Sequence record: JX560968
DNA length: 64,000 bases
Strand: one strand, 5' to 3'
Source of the DNA: Escherichia phage EC6
Shown: positions 2,224 through 45,077 of the stretch, piece after piece
Position numbering within the stretch: position 1 is the stretch's first letter
Layout of the letters: each line of letters begins with the position of its first letter
Position numbers and translations under genes: made by a program
Notes under the pieces: model-generated
Databases searched by the model: none
What the model saw: the letters and a program-made list of their open reading frames with translations, nothing else
Told to the model about the DNA's origin: nothing

Positions 2224-2673
2224 ATGTGTTATACAGGCGACCCAGCCAATAACCCTCTTGATAGAGTAAGAATCCTCTGCACAGACACCAATAATGATGA
2301 AATTCTTATTGAACAGTCTGTGCTAGAGTGGTTCTATCTAGAATCTGGAAAGGATGAAAAGAAAGCAGCCATCAAAGCTCTTAAATATTTACTCTTTCAA
2401 GTAGCCAAGATGGGAGATGAGAAAGTTGGTGGTGTTTATTTACGTAACTCTTCCAGATTCAAATCTCTGAAAGCTGTTTATGACGACCTTGTTAAAAGCT
2501 CTGTTTCAGGACTACCCTATGCAGGTGGTATTAATCAGTGTGATATTGACATGCGTCGTCATAATCCTTGCTCTGTCAAGAAATACACAGAATATGGTGA
2601 TGCTGCCAGATACGAAGGCAGAGATTACTGCAACCGTGTTAATGGCGTATTTATTATCGAGCGAGATGAATAA
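2224..2673 (+). CDS. hypothetical head-tail joining/neck protein
   Basis: ORF with AAGGAGGG RBS 8 nt upstream; between capsid and sheath genes. Confidence 0.3.
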   Translation: MCYTGDPANNPLDRVRILCTDTNNDEILIEQSVLEWFYLESGKDEKKAAIKALKYLLFQVAKMGDEKVGGVYLRNSSRFKSLKAVYDDLVKSSVSGLPYAGGINQCDIDMRRHNPCSVKKYTEYGDAARYEGRDYCNRVNGVFIIERDE

Positions 2674-3155
2674 TGGTTAAAAGGGTTATTCACCCCGCTA
2701 GAGCAAAATTAGTCGGGGCTATGAAGAACTTGCAAACGGCTAATGCTCAAGTTGGGTATTTTCAAGAACAAGGTCAACATAGCTCTGGTTTTTCTTATCC
2801 TGCTTTAATGTATTTACAAGAAGTTATTGGGGTTCCTTCAGCTTCTGGTAAAGTATATCGTAGGTTGTTTGAAATCACTATGATGCTAAACAAACAGACC
2901 TTGTTAGAGCAGACTAAGAAGAATCTATATAAGCAACTTAGCAGTCTCAACACAGACCCTTCAAATACCTTAGAAGCATTTGCAAAGAATACTCAAAAGG
3001 CAATTAAAAGGGGTTTTGGTAATTCTGCTATCCTCCCTCCTAACGCACCTTCCACAGTCAAGAAAAAAGGCTTTAACGCACCTCTTGTTGAGACAGGTGA
3101 CTTAAGAGATAACCTTGCTTATAAAATTTCTACTAAGAAGGGTATTAAGAAATGA
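2673..3155 (+). CDS. hypothetical head-tail joining/neck protein
   Basis: Start overlaps stop of upstream ORF (translational coupling); morphogenesis module. Confidence 0.3.
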   Translation: MVKRVIHPARAKLVGAMKNLQTANAQVGYFQEQGQHSSGFSYPALMYLQEVIGVPSASGKVYRRLFEITMMLNKQTLLEQTKKNLYKQLSSLNTDPSNTLEAFAKNTQKAIKRGFGNSAILPPNAPSTVKKKGFNAPLVETGDLRDNLAYKISTKKGIKK

Positions 3156-3553
3156 GACTCTTAAACAGACACAGCTTTGTAGTAAAGCGTAAAGTCTCTG
3201 AAGACGGTTATTATAATGATGATGGTGATTGGGTAGCTTCACAAGATATTGTAGAGGTTAACTGTAAAGGTAATATCCAGCCGTATATCAAAGGTTCTGT
3301 AAAGAATGGTACACAGATTGCTTTACCGGAAGGTATTAGACTTACTGATACAAGAATCCTGTATACCACATATAAACTTAGAACTTCAGATGATGTAGAG
3401 TGGAATGAGTCTGATATTGTTATGATTGATGGTCATGAGTATGAAGTATTTATGACTATGGATTGGTCACAGCAATTAGCCCATACATCCCATTATGAGT
3501 ATATCATTATTAGAAGGGATAAAATGAATGCAGTTAGAAACAGCAGAACTTGA
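3152..3553 (+). CDS. hypothetical virion assembly protein
   Basis: Overlapping start/stop with neighbours in structural module. Confidence 0.3.
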   Translation: MRLLNRHSFVVKRKVSEDGYYNDDGDWVASQDIVEVNCKGNIQPYIKGSVKNGTQIALPEGIRLTDTRILYTTYKLRTSDDVEWNESDIVMIDGHEYEVFMTMDWSQQLAHTSHYEYIIIRRDKMNAVRNSRT

Positions 3554-19859: not shown

Positions 19860-20405
19860 TCAAAAGTGTCCTTTTACTTGTGGAACATAAATTTCAAAGG
19901 TTGCTTTACCATCCTCTGATGGTTTTGACTGTACCTTTGTAAATACACGACCATCATACAACTTCTCGAAGAAGTTTTCAAAAGGTAAATGCACAGTGAC
20001 CTCTTCAGTAACTTTATGAAAGACTGTATGGAACACTACATCAGCATACGGTAAAGCATTGACAAGGACACCTGCACCACCAATTACAAAGACATCTTCA
20101 TCAATAGAGCTATCAAGATACTTCAAAAATGCTCCAAATGACTCTTTACTGGCTTTAGCATACATTACACCATCTTTGCCAAAGTCTATGCCTAAGTATG
20201 GTACAGAGTTTGTTAAGATGAGGTTTGCACGTTCTGGTAAAGGTTTACTACCCAGAGTCTTAAAAGTCTCATTACCCATTACCACTAAGTTGTTTTTAGT
20301 GAGTCTCTTAAACTCTTGCATGTCCTGTTTATGTCGAGGCCACGGCATACCAGTTGGAGTACCAAACTCACCATTTTCACCACTTGCAAAGATTAATTTA
20401 ATCAT
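19860..20405 (-). CDS. frd: dihydrofolate reductase
   Basis: 181 aa; MIKLIFASGENGEFG...MPWP, VVMGNETF, LPERANLILT motifs; adjacent to thyA. Confidence 0.8.
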   Translation of the reverse strand: MIKLIFASGENGEFGTPTGMPWPRHKQDMQEFKRLTKNNLVVMGNETFKTLGSKPLPERANLILTNSVPYLGIDFGKDGVMYAKASKESFGAFLKYLDSSIDEDVFVIGGAGVLVNALPYADVVFHTVFHKVTEEVTVHLPFENFFEKLYDGRVFTKVQSKPSEDGKATFEIYVPQVKGHF

Positions 20406-20662
20406 TTTGTAAACCCTCTCTTAATGAACCAGTTGATAACAGTCTTCACAGCTTTATTACTATGGTAGATTAAGTGTGGTGTAGGTTGGTATGAACCATA
20501 AGCCCAGAAAGCAATGATTTCACTACACCCTGTACACCTTGTACTCTCTTCAGCAATATGACCGTTGACTATCTCACTCACCTCACCTTGCAAGTCTGTA
20601 CACCCACAATGTGGACAACGTATAGGTGTTCCATCAGACTCATAGCAGTGTTCAATTTTCAT
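20402..20662 (-). CDS. small zinc-ribbon protein
   Basis: CPHCGC...CTGC cysteine pairs. Confidence 0.3.
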   Translation of the reverse strand: MKIEHCYESDGTPIRCPHCGCTDLQGEVSEIVNGHIAEESTRCTGCSEIIAFWAYGSYQPTPHLIYHSNKAVKTVINWFIKRGFTK

Positions 20663-21178
20663 TTATTTAACCTCAAAAACTGGCTCAAGAGCCAATATAA
20701 AGTCTACACAGTCATCTTCTTCATCCAGAATACCATCAAAGTTTTTAGGAACGAAGTCGAAGAGGCTCATAACAAAACAGTCAGAAGTAACCCTAATAGT
20801 TCCTCCCATATTCTCTACAGTCAACACTGTACGACTTTCTTTTACCTCTCGCAGAAGATTGCTCACAAAGTCATCTAAGAAGTACTTCATCAGTGACTTA
20901 AAACCTTTAGGGTAATCTGTACCAGAGTATGTTTCAATCTGAGGTACAAGCTTAACATTTATACTAGTCTTTGTTAAGAACGTGCTAGAGAACATGCTAT
21001 CAGGTAATTTACAAACAATCTTTCCAGTGCCTTCATGCTCAATCTCAACAAAACCAGCTTCATCGCCACACGTAACTATTTTAAAAGATGCTTCATTCTC
21101 ATACTGTGAAGCCATAAACTTTTTAAGCATTTCTTTAAGGAAATCTGCATGAGCATCTTGTAAGTAGATATCAATCAT
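20663..21178 (-). CDS. hypothetical protein
   Basis: 171-aa ORF co-oriented in minus-strand block. Confidence 0.3.
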   Translation of the reverse strand: MIDIYLQDAHADFLKEMLKKFMASQYENEASFKIVTCGDEAGFVEIEHEGTGKIVCKLPDSMFSSTFLTKTSINVKLVPQIETYSGTDYPKGFKSLMKYFLDDFVSNLLREVKESRTVLTVENMGGTIRVTSDCFVMSLFDFVPKNFDGILDEEDDCVDFILALEPVFEVK

Positions 21179-25443: not shown

Positions 25444-26000
25444 TTAGTGTACTTCAAGCCAGCTTTTACCAACCTTACCAGTACCTGTAACAAGCGTTTC
25501 TTTCTTAAGACCTAAGTTTTTAGAAGCTTGCCCATAATACCAGTCAGTAACTGCTTTCACTTCTGCCGTCATACTTTCTGGACATTCCCAACTCGTCTCG
25601 TCGTGATAGGAGCACAATAAACGAGCACCTATAGCTGGTTTGCGACCGTTCAACTTCATCAAACCTTCGTCAATCATACGACGGCAAGCAAGGTTAATTG
25701 CTTCATTCTGAACCTGCGCCTCACTACCCATTAGGGTATAGTTTAATAGTTTATGCGGTGATTTACACCATAACCACGCCCCAGCGACCTGAATGTACCC
25801 ACCCTTAGCGATTGCAGCACTCTTGCCGAAAACCTCTTCTAATGCCTTCTTAGTGGCCTTAAAATCGGCTTCTAAGTTATCAAGTAGTTTCTTAATCTTT
25901 GGTAGACGCATATAGTAGGTCTGCTTAGTTAATGCACCTTCCTCTGTAGAAGCTGCCTTAATGGTCTTGGCAAACTTCTCATCACCTGCACCGAACAATA
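25444..26000 (-). CDS. family A DNA polymerase, exon 2 (C-terminal part incl. motif C)
   Basis: Begins ..LFGAGDEKFAKTIKA (second half of Pol A motif B, cf. T7 ...YGAGDEK) and contains LLCSYHDETSWECP (motif C HDE); track ORF starts at TTG. Confidence 0.7.
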
Positions 26001-26805
26001 CATCTGGTCAATACACTCGCAAGGTGTACCAGTTCTCTTATGAACTTCTCCGCATTTCTACGGAGTGTCGGACTATATCACGCAGTAGTAATACTACCGT
26101 TGCACTTGGGAATGGTCATTAGCTTACCACCCTACTCTACTCAGTTCATACATTAAGTATGCTTTTCGATAGTCTCTGAACGTTTCTCTGTTAGGAACTC
26201 TAAAATACTATTATTTACTAAGGTATGCAATTGCTCTCTTCATGTTCTCTATACTATCTGAGAACAGCCCAAGACCTCTGTTACAGTTGTGACACAGCAT
26301 ACCTCTTACCTGTCCTGTTTTGTGGTCATGGTCAACAACCAGCTTGGCTTTATGTCTTGAACCATCCATGATAAAACCTTCACCACCGCAGATTTGACAC
26401 TTGTGACCACACTTACTTAGTAACTCTTCGACCTCTTCTCTTTCTAAGCCGTAAGTCCTTAAGTAATAGTTCTTTACCCTTCCCTTTTCTCCACAAGCAG
26501 AACTGCAATACGTCTGTCTTGCTGTTCTAGGTGTAAACTGGTTATTGCAGCTTGGACATATTTTCTCTATGACACGACTTGCTGCTCTTCTGTCTACTTC
26601 AAGAACGCAGTTTCTACAACGTTTTTGATTGTACTGATATGGCTTAAACTCTTCGCCACATCTGGAACAAACTCTTTCTTTATAACCTGCCATTGTCTCT
26701 CTCCCATTTCTACTATAGGAGTCCTAACAGAGACTTCGCTGCTGATTACCATATCTTTACAGACTTAGGCTTCCAGCAATTCACAACGTTTTACATGCGC
26801 CACTG
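26001..26805 (-). mobile_element. group I intron (about 805 nt) in DNA polymerase gene, carrying an HNH homing endonuclease ORF
   Basis: Exon 1 ends ...AUCUAUGCGU; intron starts CAGUG-GCGCAU (P1: exon AUGCGU pairs with GCGCAU, U-G at splice site); intron ends ...GACCAGAUG; 3' part has GACUAUCG, GUAGGGU, GAUAUAGUCC elements like T4 td-type introns; joined exons restore ...KAKNGIYA-LLFGAGDEK. Confidence 0.6.
26211..26693 (-). CDS. HNH homing endonuclease (endonuclease VII-like) inside the intron
   Basis: Cys-rich zinc-binding N-terminus and HNH core LVVDHDHKTGQVRGMLCHNCNRGLG. Confidence 0.7.
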   Translation of the reverse strand: MAGYKERVCSRCGEEFKPYQYNQKRCRNCVLEVDRRAASRVIEKICPSCNNQFTPRTARQTYCSSACGEKGRVKNYYLRTYGLEREEVEELLSKCGHKCQICGGEGFIMDGSRHKAKLVVDHDHKTGQVRGMLCHNCNRGLGLFSDSIENMKRAIAYLSK

Positions 26806-28948
26806 ACGCATAGATACCATTCTTAGCCTTCTTACGGCCTTTAGTTATCTCGTGAAGAAGTTCTTCATCCTGAGTTTCTCTACAACGAATAATGTCATCC
26901 TCTTTGTTCAATGCAAAGTAGATGCTGTTAAGCGTATGTGCATCAGTACCTGTATACACCTCATATAAGTCATTATCCATATCGTAACGACAATACTTGT
27001 CAGTCTCTGGATTGAGGTACTTGTCAAGATGTTTGCAGTAGTACCGTCCATCATCCTGTTTAGTGAACTCGACAAACTCTTTACCTTCAGTTACTGCTTT
27101 AGTGAACTCTTTATCACCCATAAAGTTACACAGTAAAACAAGCTGTGCAGAGTTCTGGTCAACTGAAACGATGTTAGTCCCTTCCTCACAAATCCACACC
27201 TCCCTCATAGGTGCTCCATAGACAGCAGCACCAGATGGTACGTTTACAATACCATACTGCGTCATACGTCCAGTTGAAGTACCAAACACCATTGCACCAG
27301 CACTAAGGCGACCATCTGGACGAATCTGGTTCAACCAACCTTTTTCATCATCCTTTGAGTTCTCAATAGTTCTGCGTCGGTGCATCAAAGTATAGTACTT
27401 AGCAATCTTCTGTCCAAGTTCACCTTCAATCGTATCATAAGATGATTCAGTAAGTTTTGGTGAAGTACGGATTAAGCAAGGCTCAAGCAAATCTGTGTAC
27501 TTCTTCACAGACCAGTTATGCTCAATGTACTGTACACCTTCATGTTCAACATAACTCAAACCACACCGCTCAACCATTTCCTGCCACTTAGGATGCTTTG
27601 TAATCATCTTTTTATTGTCTTTGAAACGACAAACTTTGACAGGGTGACCATCTGAGTCTTTCTTGTAGTTCCAGTCATCTGGAATCCAACCAACTGATTT
27701 CAAGTAGTCTTTAACAACTGCTACCTGAGTCATACGAGAAACTTCAAACTCAATTGGTGTATATGGTGCATCAATCAAACCTGTGTAGCGACTTGACTCA
27801 AGTTCAAAGTGGTTAACAACGTGGCTGTTATAGTACTTCACAGTTTTGACTGTTTTTACTGGCTTCCAGTCTTTGCATTTCTTACCAATCTTTGCATTCA
27901 ACTCATTGCAAATTGCACGAGCATCCTTCATTGCTACAAAGCCTTCCTTGTACTCTTCACCAGTTACAGAGTTGGTTGGTGTATAGCAATTTCTCTTTTC
28001 AATGTTAAAAATCTTTGTAGTTGGCTTACCAAATGGCTTGATTTCGTATGTCTGCATCTCACCGTTACGTACCTGCTGACGATACTTTGTCTTAGGATAC
28101 TTGGTAATCCTCTTCAGTCCATCTGCATGACCAAATGTTTCAACATACTCATTCCAAGCTTTTGCAAACTCTTCTCCAGTGACTTTACCTTTGGTCTTAA
28201 TAGTTGGAGGAAGATGTGGTTCAACCTCTGAAGCAAGCTCATTAGTCAACTTGTCAAGTTCCTTTACATGGAACTCCATAAGCTCTTTATCAGCTTTCCA
28301 ACCATTGATAGCTTGTTGACTCATCCAGAAAGATGTTTCTTTAGCTCGCATGTAAGTTTCATAAGTGTCTATACCACACTTCTTAAGCTTGAGATACTCG
28401 TTATCAAGTGCCCGTTTAGTTTTGGCGTTAATACGGATATCTTCTACAACACGAGTGAAGATTTCTGCATTCCACACACCCCAATGTTCAATCTCTGGTT
28501 TACGAACACCAACACGAGCACCCCATGCAGCCAAACCATGAGCACCTTTATAACCCTTTGGAGTTGGTCTATCCATCCACTGAACACGAGACTGGATAAG
28601 AGAATCCTGAAAGAAATTACTCCACGGTTTACACTTTGGATTATCAAAGTTCCATAAATCAGGTGCAATGTGATTGAAAACCCACCAGTCATAACCGAGA
28701 CCGTTGTGGATGCAAAGACGTTTTGCCTTTAACGCAAACTCAATACCTTCACGTAAGCCACCCTTGATGTACTTGGTATACTTGTGACCGAGGATAGGCT
28801 CATCTGTAAAGACCCATACAGGTGGCTCTTCATCATCAGATTTATAGTCTGCGAAAGCCATTACGTGCACTTTAGTGAACTCAAGGAGTAAACCATCAGT
28901 TTCTGTATCACCAACTAAATGTAAGTTTTTAAAATCTACGTTTTCCAT
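26806..28948 (-). CDS. family A DNA polymerase, exon 1 (3'-5' exonuclease and N-terminal polymerase domains)
   Basis: Exo motif LVGDTETDGL (cf. Pol I DTETDSL); ends ...GRKKAKNGIYA (first half of motif B); likely start is ATG at 28948 (GAGGGAG RBS) rather than track start 28978. Confidence 0.75.
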
Positions 28949-28978
28949 TTTTACTCCCTCTAAAATCATTAACCTCAT

Positions 28979-42616: not shown

Positions 42617-43813
42617 ATGAACAAAGTACAAATTATTAAAAAGAATGGCTCACTTGAAGAACCGGATATCAAAAAAGTTTTAGCAGCAGTCACAAAGTCG
42701 GCTAATAGGGTTGGTTATAAAGAGCTTCCACCAGATGTTACTCAAGCTCTTGAGTCAGCATTTATGAGGATTCTGGTAAAATCTACTAAACAGAATAATT
42801 TGCTAATCTCGGTAAATGATATCCACAGTATTGTTGAGGGTGCTTTGGCAGAAGTCAATCATGAGATTTATGAGTCTTACTCAACATATAGAAATTACCG
42901 TAAAGAGGTTGCTCAAAATTGGGATGAGCTTTACCAAAAGACTAAAGACACACTCTTCTTAGGTGACCGTGAAAACGCTAACTTTGACAGTAGTTTAATT
43001 TCTACAAAAGGTTCAATTATTCGTGGTTACCTGACTAAAGAAATCTTTAAACAGTACCATTTAACACCAGAGGAACTTGAAGCCATTGAAAAAGGGTTTA
43101 TCTATATTCATGATTTAAGAGACCTGATTTTTGGTGGTATCAACTGTTGCCTGTTTGACATTGGTAAAGTGCTGAAAGGTGGCTTTGAAATGTCTGGCAT
43201 TGAATACTGTGAACCAAAGTCTGTACTGTCAGCTTTACAGGTTATTGGTGATGTAGTTCTTTCAGCAACTGCACAGCAATTTGGTGGCTTTACTTTAGCA
43301 GAGATTGATAAGGTACTTGTACCGTATGCTAAGAAGTCTCTACGTTACCATGCTGAAAAAGCAACAGCTTATGGTATTCCTAAAGAACATTACCACAACT
43401 ATGTCATGGAGCAGCTACAGATTGAATTAACTCAAGGTTTTCAGTCTCTTGAAATGAAGCTCAATACCGTACCTTGTAGCCGTGGTGATTTTGCATTCAC
43501 AACTTTAACATTTGGTTTACTTGACCCAGACATGTCTAATGAAGACAACCGATTACAATACATGATTGCAAGTACCCTCCTAGATGTTCGTATGAATGGA
43601 CAAGGTAAGAGCAAGAAGCCTGTTGTATTTCCTAAACTGGTTTATATTTATGACCAGAAGAGACACGATGAGAATATCTGTCAAGGACACCTGTACAGTA
43701 AAGCCATTGAGTGTTGCTCTAAAGCAATGTATCCAGATTTCTTAAGTGTATCTGGTCATGGTGCTGTAGCAGAGGCTTTTGAGCGTTCTGGTAAGGTTAT
43801 TTCACCGATGGGT
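42617..43813 (+). CDS. nrdD: anaerobic ribonucleoside-triphosphate reductase, exon 1
   Basis: N-terminal ATP-cone (IIKKNGSLEEPDIKKV); ORF ends ...ISPMG where intron begins with UAA. Confidence 0.75.
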
Positions 43814-44129
43814 TAACAAGCTCTATAGCTCATCTAAAACGTGCCTAAACAGGGAAACTCTACAGATGTAGACAATCCTGTGCTAAATGATGTATGATGT
43901 AAGAAACTATACAACATAGGAGTCTTACATGCCAAATAACTTCGAATATGAGTTTGAATACATCTAAATGCCGAACGACTAACCGTGATGAATGTAGCGG
44001 TGTAGGGTCAAGCGACTCGAAATGGTACGCTACTTAGAAATAAGTAGAAGATATAGTCTGGACTTACTGGCGACAGTAAGCAGCTTGAATAAAGCGGGGT
44101 AAGCTTAGCGAACTTACCTGAACAACAAG
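43814..44129 (+). mobile_element. ORF-less group I intron (about 316 nt) in nrdD
   Basis: Starts UAACAAGCUC right after exon AUGGGU (P1 with intron GCUCAU at 43828-43833); core resembles T4 td-type introns (CUAAACAGGGAAACUCUACAGAUGUAGACAAUCCUGUGCUAAAU; GUAGGGUCAAGCGACUCGAAA; GAUAUAGUCUGG); ends ...CUGAACAACAAG; exon 2 resumes in frame. Confidence 0.7.
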
Positions 44130-45077
44130 TGTAGAGCATTTTTATCACCATACCATAACGAATATGGCGAAGAGTTTTATGTAGGTCGTGCTAACATCGG
44201 TGCTGTTTCTTTGAACTTACCAATGATTTACCAGTATTCTAAAGAGAATGGTTTAGATTTCTGGAAGGAGCTTGATAAGTACCTAGAGATGATTCGCAGC
44301 TTCCACAAGAAACGCTACGAAATGATTGCTAACATGCCAGCAAGTTCTAACCCTCTGGCATTCACACAAGGTGGTCTGTACAAAGGGACTAAGAAACCTA
44401 CTGACAAGGTTGGTTGGGATATCGTGAAGTCCTTCACAGCTTCTTTTGGGGTTACTGCGCTTGATGAACTATCTGTTCTTGCTGAAGGTAAACGACTTCA
44501 TGAAGTTGGAAGTTCTAGTTTTGCATACGATGTTCTGGCATACATTAACATGAAAACTGAAGAGTTTAAGAATGAAGATGGCTTCCTGTATGCAGTATAT
44601 GGCACTCCAGCAGAGTCATTGTGTGGAACTCAGCTAAAACAGTTCAGAGATATGTTTGGCGTTATCAAAGGCGTTTCTGATAAGGAATATTTTACAAACA
44701 GTTTCCATATGAATGTTGCAGCAGATATCTCACCATTTGAGAAGCAGGACTTAGAAGAGCCATTCTTCCATATCTGTAGAGGCGGCAGAATCCAGTATGT
44801 GAGGGTAGCTAACCCAGAAAACTTACCAGCACTTAAAAGTTGTATTACAAGAGGGATGTTGAAAGGCTTTTATCAGGGACTTAACTTTGACTTAGCAATC
44901 TGCGAACATTGTGGCAACAGGCCAAAGGCTGATGTTGAAGAATGTGAGGTTTGCCATTCACATGACATCTCTGTGATTAACAGAGTGTGTGGATATCTTG
45001 GGTGGACTAAGATTAAAGGTGAATCCCGAATGAATGATGCAAAAATTGCTGAGATTCGTGATAGGGTTTCTATGTAA
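44130..45077 (+). CDS. nrdD: anaerobic ribonucleoside-triphosphate reductase, exon 2
   Basis: Begins CRAFLSPYHNEYGEEFYVGRANIGAVSLNLP; C-terminal zinc ribbon CEHCG...CEVCH and glycyl-radical motif RVCGYLG; spliced product about 714 aa. Confidence 0.75.
   Translation, partial: CRAFLSPYHNEYGEEFYVGRANIGAVSLNLPMIYQYSKENGLDFWKELDKYLEMIRSFHKKRYEMIANMPASSNPLAFTQGGLYKGTKKPTDKVGWDIVKSFTASFGVTALDELSVLAEGKRLHEVGSSSFAYDVLAYINMKTEEFKNEDGFLYAVYGTPAESLCGTQLKQFRDMFGVIKGVSDKEYFTNSFHMNVAADISPFEKQDLEEPFFHICRGGRIQYVRVANPENLPALKSCITRGMLKGFYQGLNFDLAICEHCGNRPKADVEECEVCHSHDISVINRVCGYLGWTKIKGESRMNDAKIAEIRDRVSM

Follow-up and report, generated by a model that had tools for sequence, protein, structure and literature searches.

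A probable mobile group I intron carrying an endonuclease VII-type gene in motif B of the DNA polymerase gene of Escherichia phage EC6

How does Escherichia phage EC6 encode its DNA polymerase? In the 64,000-nt stretch of its genome analyzed here (sequence record JX560968; hereafter, the window), the minus strand carries an ORF for the N-terminal part of a family A polymerase (26765..28978), an ORF for a protein of 160 amino acids (26211..26693), and an ORF for the polymerase C-terminal part (25444..25998). The locus may thus hold either two polymerase genes with a third gene between them or a single gene interrupted by an insert that is removed from its RNA. We conclude with high confidence that the insert is a mobile group I intron of subgroup IA2, which bears a putative homing endonuclease gene of the endonuclease VII (Endo VII) type and resides in motif B of the polymerase. 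The host belongs to the genus Felixounavirus (Felix O1-like myoviruses); the 3.6 kb around the insert are 95-97% identical to many such phages, with Escherichia phage Barry as the best match (97% identity in the polymerase region).

The family A polymerase gene is interrupted by 805 nt, the borders lying at 26806|26805 and 26001|26000. Exon 1 (26806..28978, minus strand, as are all features described below) is defined by its ORF and a partial match to Pfam DNA_pol_A, its end being set by intronless alleles; GenBank relatives use an alternative start, the ATG at 28948. The exon terminates with ...AAGAATGGTATCTATGCGT at 26806 (codons ...GGT ATC TAT GCG T), that is, with ...RKKAKNGIYA and the first base of the codon that follows. 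The insert (26805..26001) reads CAGTGGCGCATG...GACCAGATG. Exon 2 (25444..26000), recognized by its ORF and by Pfam, opens with TATTGTTCGGTGCAGGTGATGAGAAG at 26000 (TA TTG TTC GGT GCA GGT GAT GAG AAG) and runs from (L)LFGAGDEK... through motif C (YHDE) to the stop; it covers Pfam DNA_pol_A positions 218-379 and is colinear with residues 722-906 of the Felix O1 polymerase. The insertion splits the codon that follows ...GIYA and lies in the O-helix, motif B, of the only family A polymerase gene of the phage.

In the intronless relative EcSzw-2, the DNA reads ...TATGCGT|TACTGTTCGG... with no bases between (DNA alignment, one allele of each class). Because intronless relatives are without exactly these bases, both boundaries are fixed to the base. 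Conceptual ligation of the exons produces the junction ...GGTATCTATGCGT-TATTGTTCGG... (also written ...ATCTATGCGT-TATTGTTCGG...) and yields ...RKKAKNGIYALLFGAGDEK..., in which the motif B typical of family A is whole, with the YHDE of motif C later in exon 2. Felix O1 has a single, uninterrupted polymerase CDS of 906 amino acids, to which the conceptual spliced protein aligns with 0 gaps across ...KNGIYA|LLFGAGDEK...; the 29 residues around the junction (EITKGRKKAKNGIYALLFGAGDEKFAKTI) are identical in the two proteins. With Pfam DNA_pol_A (PF00476; threshold, 34.3 bits), the spliced protein obtains 54.7 bits and a single stretch of the match spans the junction, whereas the two fragments alone reach 18.3 and 26.5 bits and both stay below that threshold. 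With this profile score, with motif B as RKKAKNGIYALLFGAG and motif C as YHDE, the spliced protein is a member of family A, and it matches the T7 and Taq polymerase structures. The first-pass annotation of this DNA had split the gene at the same positions on the grounds of RKKAKNGIYA, LFGAGDEK and YHDE. All three are present in the sequence, the splice boundaries it proposed prove exact on both the EcSzw-2 DNA and the Felix O1 protein, and the alignment of the reconstructed protein with polymerases that it suggested is gapless against Felix O1, the Pfam score lying above threshold.

A truly split polymerase would be another way to read these ORFs. A free-standing endonuclease gene would then have been inserted, and the two polymerase pieces, one ending ...GIYASVAHVKRCELLEA and the other starting MFGAGDEK, would be translated separately and assemble; some T4-like phages indeed have a split gp43. 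GenBank relatives are annotated with two polymerase CDSs plus an endonuclease, and the frames would permit it, as the N-terminal ORF reads 13 codons into the insert to an in-frame TAA (26767..26765) and exon 2 has a TTG close to its start. However, no Shine-Dalgarno-like sequence precedes this TTG, and the insert interrupts a codon in the middle of motif B. Moreover, the non-coding flanks of the endonuclease ORF constitute a conserved group I core, and alleles devoid of the ORF retain a 268-nt insert, which would be senseless for a free-standing gene. We give separate translation of two pieces very little credence. An intein or a group II intron, both of which also interrupt conserved motifs of phage replication genes, has a probability close to nil: the insert is out of frame for an intein, its 805 nt not being divisible by 3 and the TAA coming 13 codons in; RF00028 was the sole Rfam intron family matched, and no group II domain was found in the insert; and the ORF encodes a nuclease, neither a reverse transcriptase nor an intein. 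Reading frame, Rfam, the group I core and the ORF-less alleles led us to reject the intein, the group II intron and the truly split polymerase alike.

Is the RNA of the insert that of a group I intron? A scan of the whole window against Rfam at curated thresholds did not report the polymerase insert, its sole match being an nrdD intron, which also lies within the same 64 kb. A sensitive scan with RF00028, whose curated threshold is 50 bits, returned two pieces of the window copy in the expected order, one of 22.9 bits (26665..26778, P4-P6, model positions 60-140) and one of 14 bits (26048..26222, 3' core), both below that threshold. The match is split and sub-threshold because a 525-nt, ORF-bearing P6a loop divides the model. 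Natural ORF-less orthologues of 268 and 311 nt, the core of which is near-identical to that of the window copy, score 61.7 bits (REP10) and 62.9 bits (EC106), respectively. Thus, the Rfam search of 26001-26805 that had been proposed as a check gave two ordered, sub-threshold pieces for the window copy itself, and matches above threshold for its ORF-less orthologues.

The intron (26001..26805, 805 nt, CAGUGGCGCAUG...GACCAGAUG), identified as an IA2-type element from the intronless alleles, the RF00028 matches of ORF-less orthologues and its structure, can be drawn by hand from P1 to P10, including P7.1 and P7.2, with 100% standard pairs; energy minimization alone recovered 50 of 75 hand-drawn pairs, and P7 in addition. 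The P1 hairpin (26795..26811) joins the exon sequence AUGCGU (26811..26806) with the internal guide GCGCAU (26800..26795) around a CAGUG loop, and it was also recovered by the minimum-free-energy fold. A U•G pair occupies the 5' splice site (26806), and the intron ends with a G at 26001; P1, the U•G pair and the terminal G are identical in all 11 copies examined. The 5' half of the core (26722..26788), supported by the partial Rfam match, pairing and covariation, comprises the P3 5' strand, P4, P5/P5a, P4' and the 5' strands of P6 and P6a. A 12-bp P6a stem (UCUCUGUUAGGA/UCCUAACAGAGA) flanks the terminal loop of 525 nt (26197..26721), which contains the endonuclease gene; in REP10 and EC106, both without the ORF, only a few bases of this loop are left. 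The 3' half (26005..26196), placed by the partial Rfam match, covariation and helix coordinates, holds the P6a/P6 3' strands, P7, P7.1 (26161..26147), P7.2 (26132..26108), the P3 3' strand, P8, the P7 3' strand (GAUAUAGUCC), P9 with a GAAA loop, P9.1 and P9.2. P7 itself is GACUA/UAGUC and adjoins the conserved GAUAUAGUCC. The first five bases of exon 2, which read UAUUG (25996..26000), would form P10 with intron bases 1-5 (CAGUG, 26805..26801) through three Watson-Crick and two G•U pairs.

Subgroup IA2 is defined by the extra hairpins P7.1 and P7.2 and does not require P2 (PMC3428280). Both hairpins are found here between the P7 and P3 3' strands, both show covariation in the family-wide alignment (helices 8 and 9), and they place the intron in the phage-type subgroup IA2, for which 'T4 td-type' is a reasonable label. 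The first-pass annotation had compared the core to T4 td-type introns, and the presence of P7.1 and P7.2, as in IA2, agrees with that comparison; the P1 pairing (AUGCGU/GCGCAU), the U-G at the splice site and the terminal G, which it had also listed, are all seen in the sequence.

Among eight distinct Felixounavirus copies, 489/489 pair cells are standard pairs. Pairing is kept in all seven stem columns that vary, compensatory U-A to C-G changes occur in P6a and P8, and the remaining variable positions map to loops, bulges or junctions; P7, checked in this eight-sequence set only, is invariant. Within the genus the core hardly varies, so that covariation there amounts to few events, and for this reason a P3-P9 covariance model was built for a wider search. 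The model contains Felixounavirus copies only, relatives being aligned to it by Infernal. A MAFFT alignment with the intron of Erwinia phage MIF8 misaligned P7.2-P8 and was kept out of the model, and GE_vB_NS7 was excluded for its many single-base indels, present even in the exons of an 'UNVERIFIED', low-quality-looking assembly. The search set consisted of 100 loci, namely 99 viral contigs sharing a 16-nt core motif and the MIF8 locus, and it yielded 98 matches (91 distinct) from very diverse viral contigs. In the 91 distinct relatives, 91.6% of cells pair, as opposed to 39-46% with the partners slid; fitting the alignment to the model favors pairing, yet the margin over the slid control is still large. 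Double changes were found at 57 of the 57 modelled pairs. This covariation supports a group I fold of the RNA core, with P3-P9 and the P3/P7 pseudoknot. Together with the intronless alleles and the RF00028 matches of ORF-less orthologues, it upholds the original interpretation of the insert as a group I intron with an endonuclease gene.

The ORF within the P6a loop (26211..26693) matches Pfam Endonuclease_7 (PF02945) with 71.4 bits against a cut-off of 23.6 (E 5.9e-20), PHROG 307 'endonuclease VII' (E 8e-43) and, in the PDB, Hpy99I (E 2.5e-7) and also T4 endonuclease VII. The C-terminal part of its 160-amino-acid product is a beta-beta-alpha-metal nuclease of the Endo VII type (VVDHDH...R...CHNCN). 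Alignment to Hpy99I retains vvDHdHktG..R..ChnCN.glG, with the D-H-x-H...R...N residues and zinc-binding Cys. The N-terminal part contains two zinc-ribbon-like CxxC...CxxC repeats that probably form the DNA-binding part. Judged by these motifs, the product is a member of the Endo VII-type (DHHRN) branch of the His-Me/HNH superfamily; because the Pfam match is Endonuclease_7, it is not a canonical HNH family member. The first-pass annotation had called it an HNH endonuclease, which was right as to the ORF and the superfamily but wrong as to the classical HNH family, PF02945 placing it with the Endo VII type. A Shine-Dalgarno-like GGGAGAGAG (26697..26705) ends 3 nt before the ATG and is kept as GG(A/G)GAGAGA in divergent copies. 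A scan for sigma-70-like promoters or terminators found none inside the insert; this is consistent with one transcript and leaves no separate promoter to be proposed for the endonuclease gene.

The ORF is intact, at about 79% amino acid identity, in divergent phages; VpaE1 has a frameshift in it, and the 268-nt and 311-nt alleles have lost it. Homing elements commonly degenerate, the VpaE1 gene is frameshifted, and a single substitution, a P8 pair changed from U-A to U•G, is private to the window copy; the EC6 intron might accordingly be a decayed relic that splices poorly, so that the polymerase would rely on residual splicing or on a helper. However, the P8 substitution keeps the pair, all core helices are intact, and the core is more conserved than the neighboring exons. 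In addition, the interrupted gene is the only polymerase gene of the phage, and the intact endonuclease ORF is 100% identical to the copy in phage Barry. A relic of this kind is therefore very improbable.

Natural alleles bear on the mobility of the intron. About 260 related records match the polymerase region, and three states occur among them. The full 805-nt insert is present in about 39 records, and about 57 have an ORF-less intron, a 268-nt or 311-nt insert that consists of only the two ends and has no long ORF. Several further records were confirmed as intronless, with one continuous polymerase gene, and most of the remaining ones are expected to be intronless as well. As a series of alleles, these states fit invasion, decay and loss in the classic homing cycle. 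The exon flanks are mosaic. In distal exon 1, the window is 94-100% identical to REP10 or EC106, and identity falls to 64-88% toward the end of the exon, over its final ~300 nt for REP10 and ~400 nt for EC106. Relative to REP10, identity is again 96-99% in the intron core and over the initial ~100 nt of exon 2, beyond which exon 2 shows 50-86% identity; the match of exon 2 to EC106 is patchy (64-100%). This pattern would fit recombination centered on the intron; the divergent stretch of exon 1 may be variable for other reasons, and some of the patchiness in the distribution of the intron could stem from vertical descent followed by loss. That close relatives have or lack the intron at one identical site, that the ORF is decayed or missing in some alleles, and that the exon flanks are mosaic lend indirect support to a role as a homing endonuclease.

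From the mapped boundaries, the fold of the RNA, the family of the nuclease and the three allelic states seen in nature, we can outline how the element would work. Exon 1, intron and exon 2 would be transcribed into a single minus-strand RNA, which would adopt the P3-P9 catalytic core. In the guanosine-initiated self-splicing that we infer, an external guanosine would attack 3' of the U in the U•G pair of P1; the freed exon 1, kept on the internal guide sequence, would then attack after the terminal G, with P10 aligning exon 2. The ligated mRNA would thereby be restored to encode a continuous polymerase of ~900 amino acids. The gene in the P6a loop, with its own ribosome-binding site, would give rise to the 160-amino-acid Endo VII-type endonuclease. 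By analogy with phage intron endonucleases that have been characterized, this enzyme is predicted, in mixed infections, to cut or nick intronless polymerase alleles near the insertion site (...GGTATCTATGCGTTACTGTTCGG...), and repair templated by intron-carrying genomes would copy the intron in.

Comparable introns are found in other phages. In the T7-like Yersinia phages Berlin and Yepe2 and Pectobacterium phage Jarilo, motif B of a family A polymerase is likewise interrupted by a group I intron, again with the ORF in a peripheral loop after P6 and again with an Endo VII-type endonuclease. The endonuclease is homologous to the EC6 one (46% amino acid identity for the Yepe2 copy; 71% nucleotide identity over 125 nt for Jarilo), and the P9.1 hairpin GUUCAUAAGAGAAC is common to T7-like and Felix-type introns; in the Yepe2 record, the polymerase is entered as a joined CDS. 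However, the P3-P6 core sequences of the T7-like introns are clearly unlike the Felix-type core, and their site lies 11 nt upstream (...AAGACGTT|T ATC TAC... versus ...TATGCGT|TATTG...). The PhiI/W31 intron with I-TslI, grouped with these, was reportedly described in 2004 by Bonocora and Shub, who are reported to have demonstrated splicing and homing experimentally for PhiI. PMC3428280 assigns the PhiI/W31 intron to Pol I position 881, which is at odds with the motif B location of the T7-like introns examined here (Yepe2 and Jarilo). The LUZ24-like phage vB_Pae_WS1160, a podovirus, also carries a group I intron in motif B of its family A polymerase, at a site 6 nt upstream of the Felix-type one (...TTCATCT|ATGCGTTC...), and its endonuclease is the closest non-Felix homologue of the EC6 protein (52% amino acid identity). 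A polymerase intron of LUZ24-like Pseudomonas phages is said to have been described by Ceyssens and colleagues in 2008. Counted from the start of the conserved Lys codon, the T7-like, LUZ24-like and Felix-like insertions follow after 8, 13 and 19 nt, respectively, at three distinct sites within 11 nt. The Felix-type site adds a third insertion point in motif B for one endonuclease family; it does not imply a new mechanism.

Further counterparts differ in site or in enzyme. The phages SPO1, SP82, Bastille and Pf-WMP3 (I-HmuI, I-HmuII, I-BasI and I-PfoP3I) also have IA2 introns in family A polymerase genes, with endonucleases of the HNH superfamily. I-PfoP3I is a 161-amino-acid protein with a C-terminal nuclease motif, encoded in P6a (PMC3428280), while the I-HmuI-type enzymes have an N-terminal HNH domain and hence another architecture than the EC6 endonuclease. 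By the numbering of E. coli Pol I, the introns of SPO1, Bastille and Pf-WMP3 are at 674-676 (PMC3428280), far from motif B, whereas the EC6 site corresponds to about codon 764 (alignment to RxxxKxxxFxxxYG). The td, nrdB and nrdD (sunY) introns of T4, likewise an enterobacterial myovirus, are built on the IA2 plan as well, with P7.1/P7.2 and a peripheral helix from which an ORF loops out. They differ in their host genes and in their enzymes, which are of the GIY-YIG type (I-TevI, I-TevII) or a defective HNH (I-TevIII) and not of the Endo VII type. The catalytic motif family of the EC6 ORF is also that of F-CphI (DHHRN, Endo VII-motif family); F-CphI, however, is free-standing beside the intron-containing psbA, whereas the EC6 enzyme, whose activity is putative, is encoded within its intron. 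In the tree of Fang et al. 2018, JH2 gp58, FSL SP-010 gp255 and an EC6 protein are labelled as intron-encoded (PMC6083498); these proteins are orthologues of the 160-amino-acid ORF.

A second endonuclease gene occurs at this locus. Many genomes with an ORF-less intron have a free-standing HNH+AP2 endonuclease gene of the REP10 type directly after the polymerase gene, EC106 has a more divergent version, and the gene is also found in some intronless genomes including Felix O1. Among the ~39 genomes with the intron-borne Endo VII-type gene, none had a full-length (≥80%), near-identical match to the REP10-type gene, an apparent mutual exclusion of the two endonucleases. Collaborative homing has been proposed for F-CphI/psbA and for T3 gene 5.3/PhiI. 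If the free-standing enzyme were to target the motif B region, a genome with the ORF-less intron would be protected, and the intron would be carried along in such a manner; the intron-borne enzyme would represent a competing solution. Homologous endonucleases on introns at three motif B sites within 11 nt, in three phage lineages, would fit the notion that nuclease and intron arrive at one conserved target independently. That the polymerase locus of Felix O1-like phages is a contest of two selfish nucleases, with the intron RNA as a shield, nevertheless strikes us as a rather unlikely conjecture.

Earlier work had touched on parts of this picture. The genome paper on Felix O1 found no introns (PMC3185647), in agreement with the intronless state of its polymerase locus. 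Moreno Switt et al. described endonuclease genes inserted into genes (PMC3728262), and a 2023 paper mentions 'two introns' in a Felixounavirus, with no detail (PMC9951933). Our literature search returned no description of structure, insertion site or splicing for the Felix-type polymerase intron. The element is an already recognized, ordinary kind of phage intron, its orthologous endonucleases having been called intron-encoded in 2018. It does offer a natural series of intronless, live-endonuclease, frameshifted and ORF-less alleles in which to follow the homing life cycle in therapeutic-type coliphages and Salmonella phages.

The chief value of the finding lies in the correction of annotations. 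Dozens of Felixounavirus genomes in GenBank list two 'DNA polymerase' CDSs, one of which runs into the intron while the other begins at a false TTG, and at least one record names the endonuclease 'DNA polymerase I'. Recognition of the intron replaces them with a single correct polymerase of ~900 amino acids and keeps pangenome and phylogeny pipelines from splitting a core gene. Small plus-strand ORFs of 40-53 amino acids in 25793..26768 overlap the conserved minus-strand features and were treated as spurious.

The polymerase exons around the intron are mosaic. When minus-strand positions 26806..27100 and 25444..25900 of the window were compared with the corresponding loci of phages REP10, EC106, and Barry, exon 1 over its final ~300-400 nt and exon 2 over much of its length fell to 50-88% identity between phages whose polymerase genes are 94-100% identical further upstream. 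The intron core remained 96-99% identical; in REP10, the same held for exon 2 over its initial 100 nt.

Phages carrying an ORF-less polymerase intron possess a free-standing HNH_3+AP2 endonuclease gene immediately 3' of the polymerase gene (2329-2862 of the REP10 locus and 2368-2880 of the EC106 locus). Some phages that lack the intron have this gene in the same place, Felix O1 among them (20288-20791 of its locus). The window and Barry lack the gene, and none of the ~39 genomes with an intron-borne endonuclease was among its 55 full-length matches. This pattern could reflect selfish elements that compete or collaborate, or simply shared ancestry.

In motif B of the polymerase, group I introns with homologous Endo VII-type endonuclease genes occupy three distinct positions (T7-like, LUZ24-like, and Felix-like) spread over no more than 11 nt. 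Such genes reside in group I introns of Jarilo (2650-3350), Yepe2 (1320-2010), and WS1160 (1325-2015; coordinates of the fetched loci), and two polymerase CDSs are annotated in both Jarilo and WS1160. The published placement of the PhiI/W31 intron at Pol I position 881 (PMC3428280) disagrees with the T7-like introns that we examined, which interrupt motif B.

Outside Felixounavirus, the closest relative found for the core of the Felix polymerase intron was a group I intron of the N4-like Erwinia phage MIF8 (PP700702; 2455-2702 of the fetched locus), which lacks an ORF, is not annotated and scores 94.4 bits against RF00028. It occupies the interval separating the CDS of the 'RNAP2-like protein' from the one that follows, and probably splits the RNA polymerase gene. 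Several viral contigs from IMG/VR (L048, L049, L017, L060, and L075) matched the intron core model at 3-5 places only a few kb apart, with five between positions 1344 and 4789 of L048; these clusters suggest that some genes hold several group I introns in tandem.

The window itself harbors a second group I intron, a plus-strand, ORF-less element of 316 nt (43814..44129) that interrupts the anaerobic ribonucleotide reductase gene nrdD, with nrdD ORFs on either side (42617..43816 and 44211..45077). Rfam detected it as an RF00028 match at 43756..44080 (53.6 bits). Alignment with nrdD of Felix O1, which is uninterrupted, placed the boundaries between ...CCGATGGGT and TAACAAGC... at the 5' end and between ...AACAACAAG and TGTAGAGC at the 3' end. 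In relatives, for example UAB_Phi87, this locus holds an endonuclease gene (PMC4837284).

Public records of these loci contain annotation problems. The frameshifted intron endonuclease gene of VpaE1 (259-719 of its locus) is annotated as two overlapping CDSs, and the Barry endonuclease (2613-3095) is labeled 'DNA polymerase I'. Most records extend polymerase exon 1 by 13 codons into the intron and set the start of exon 2 at a TTG.
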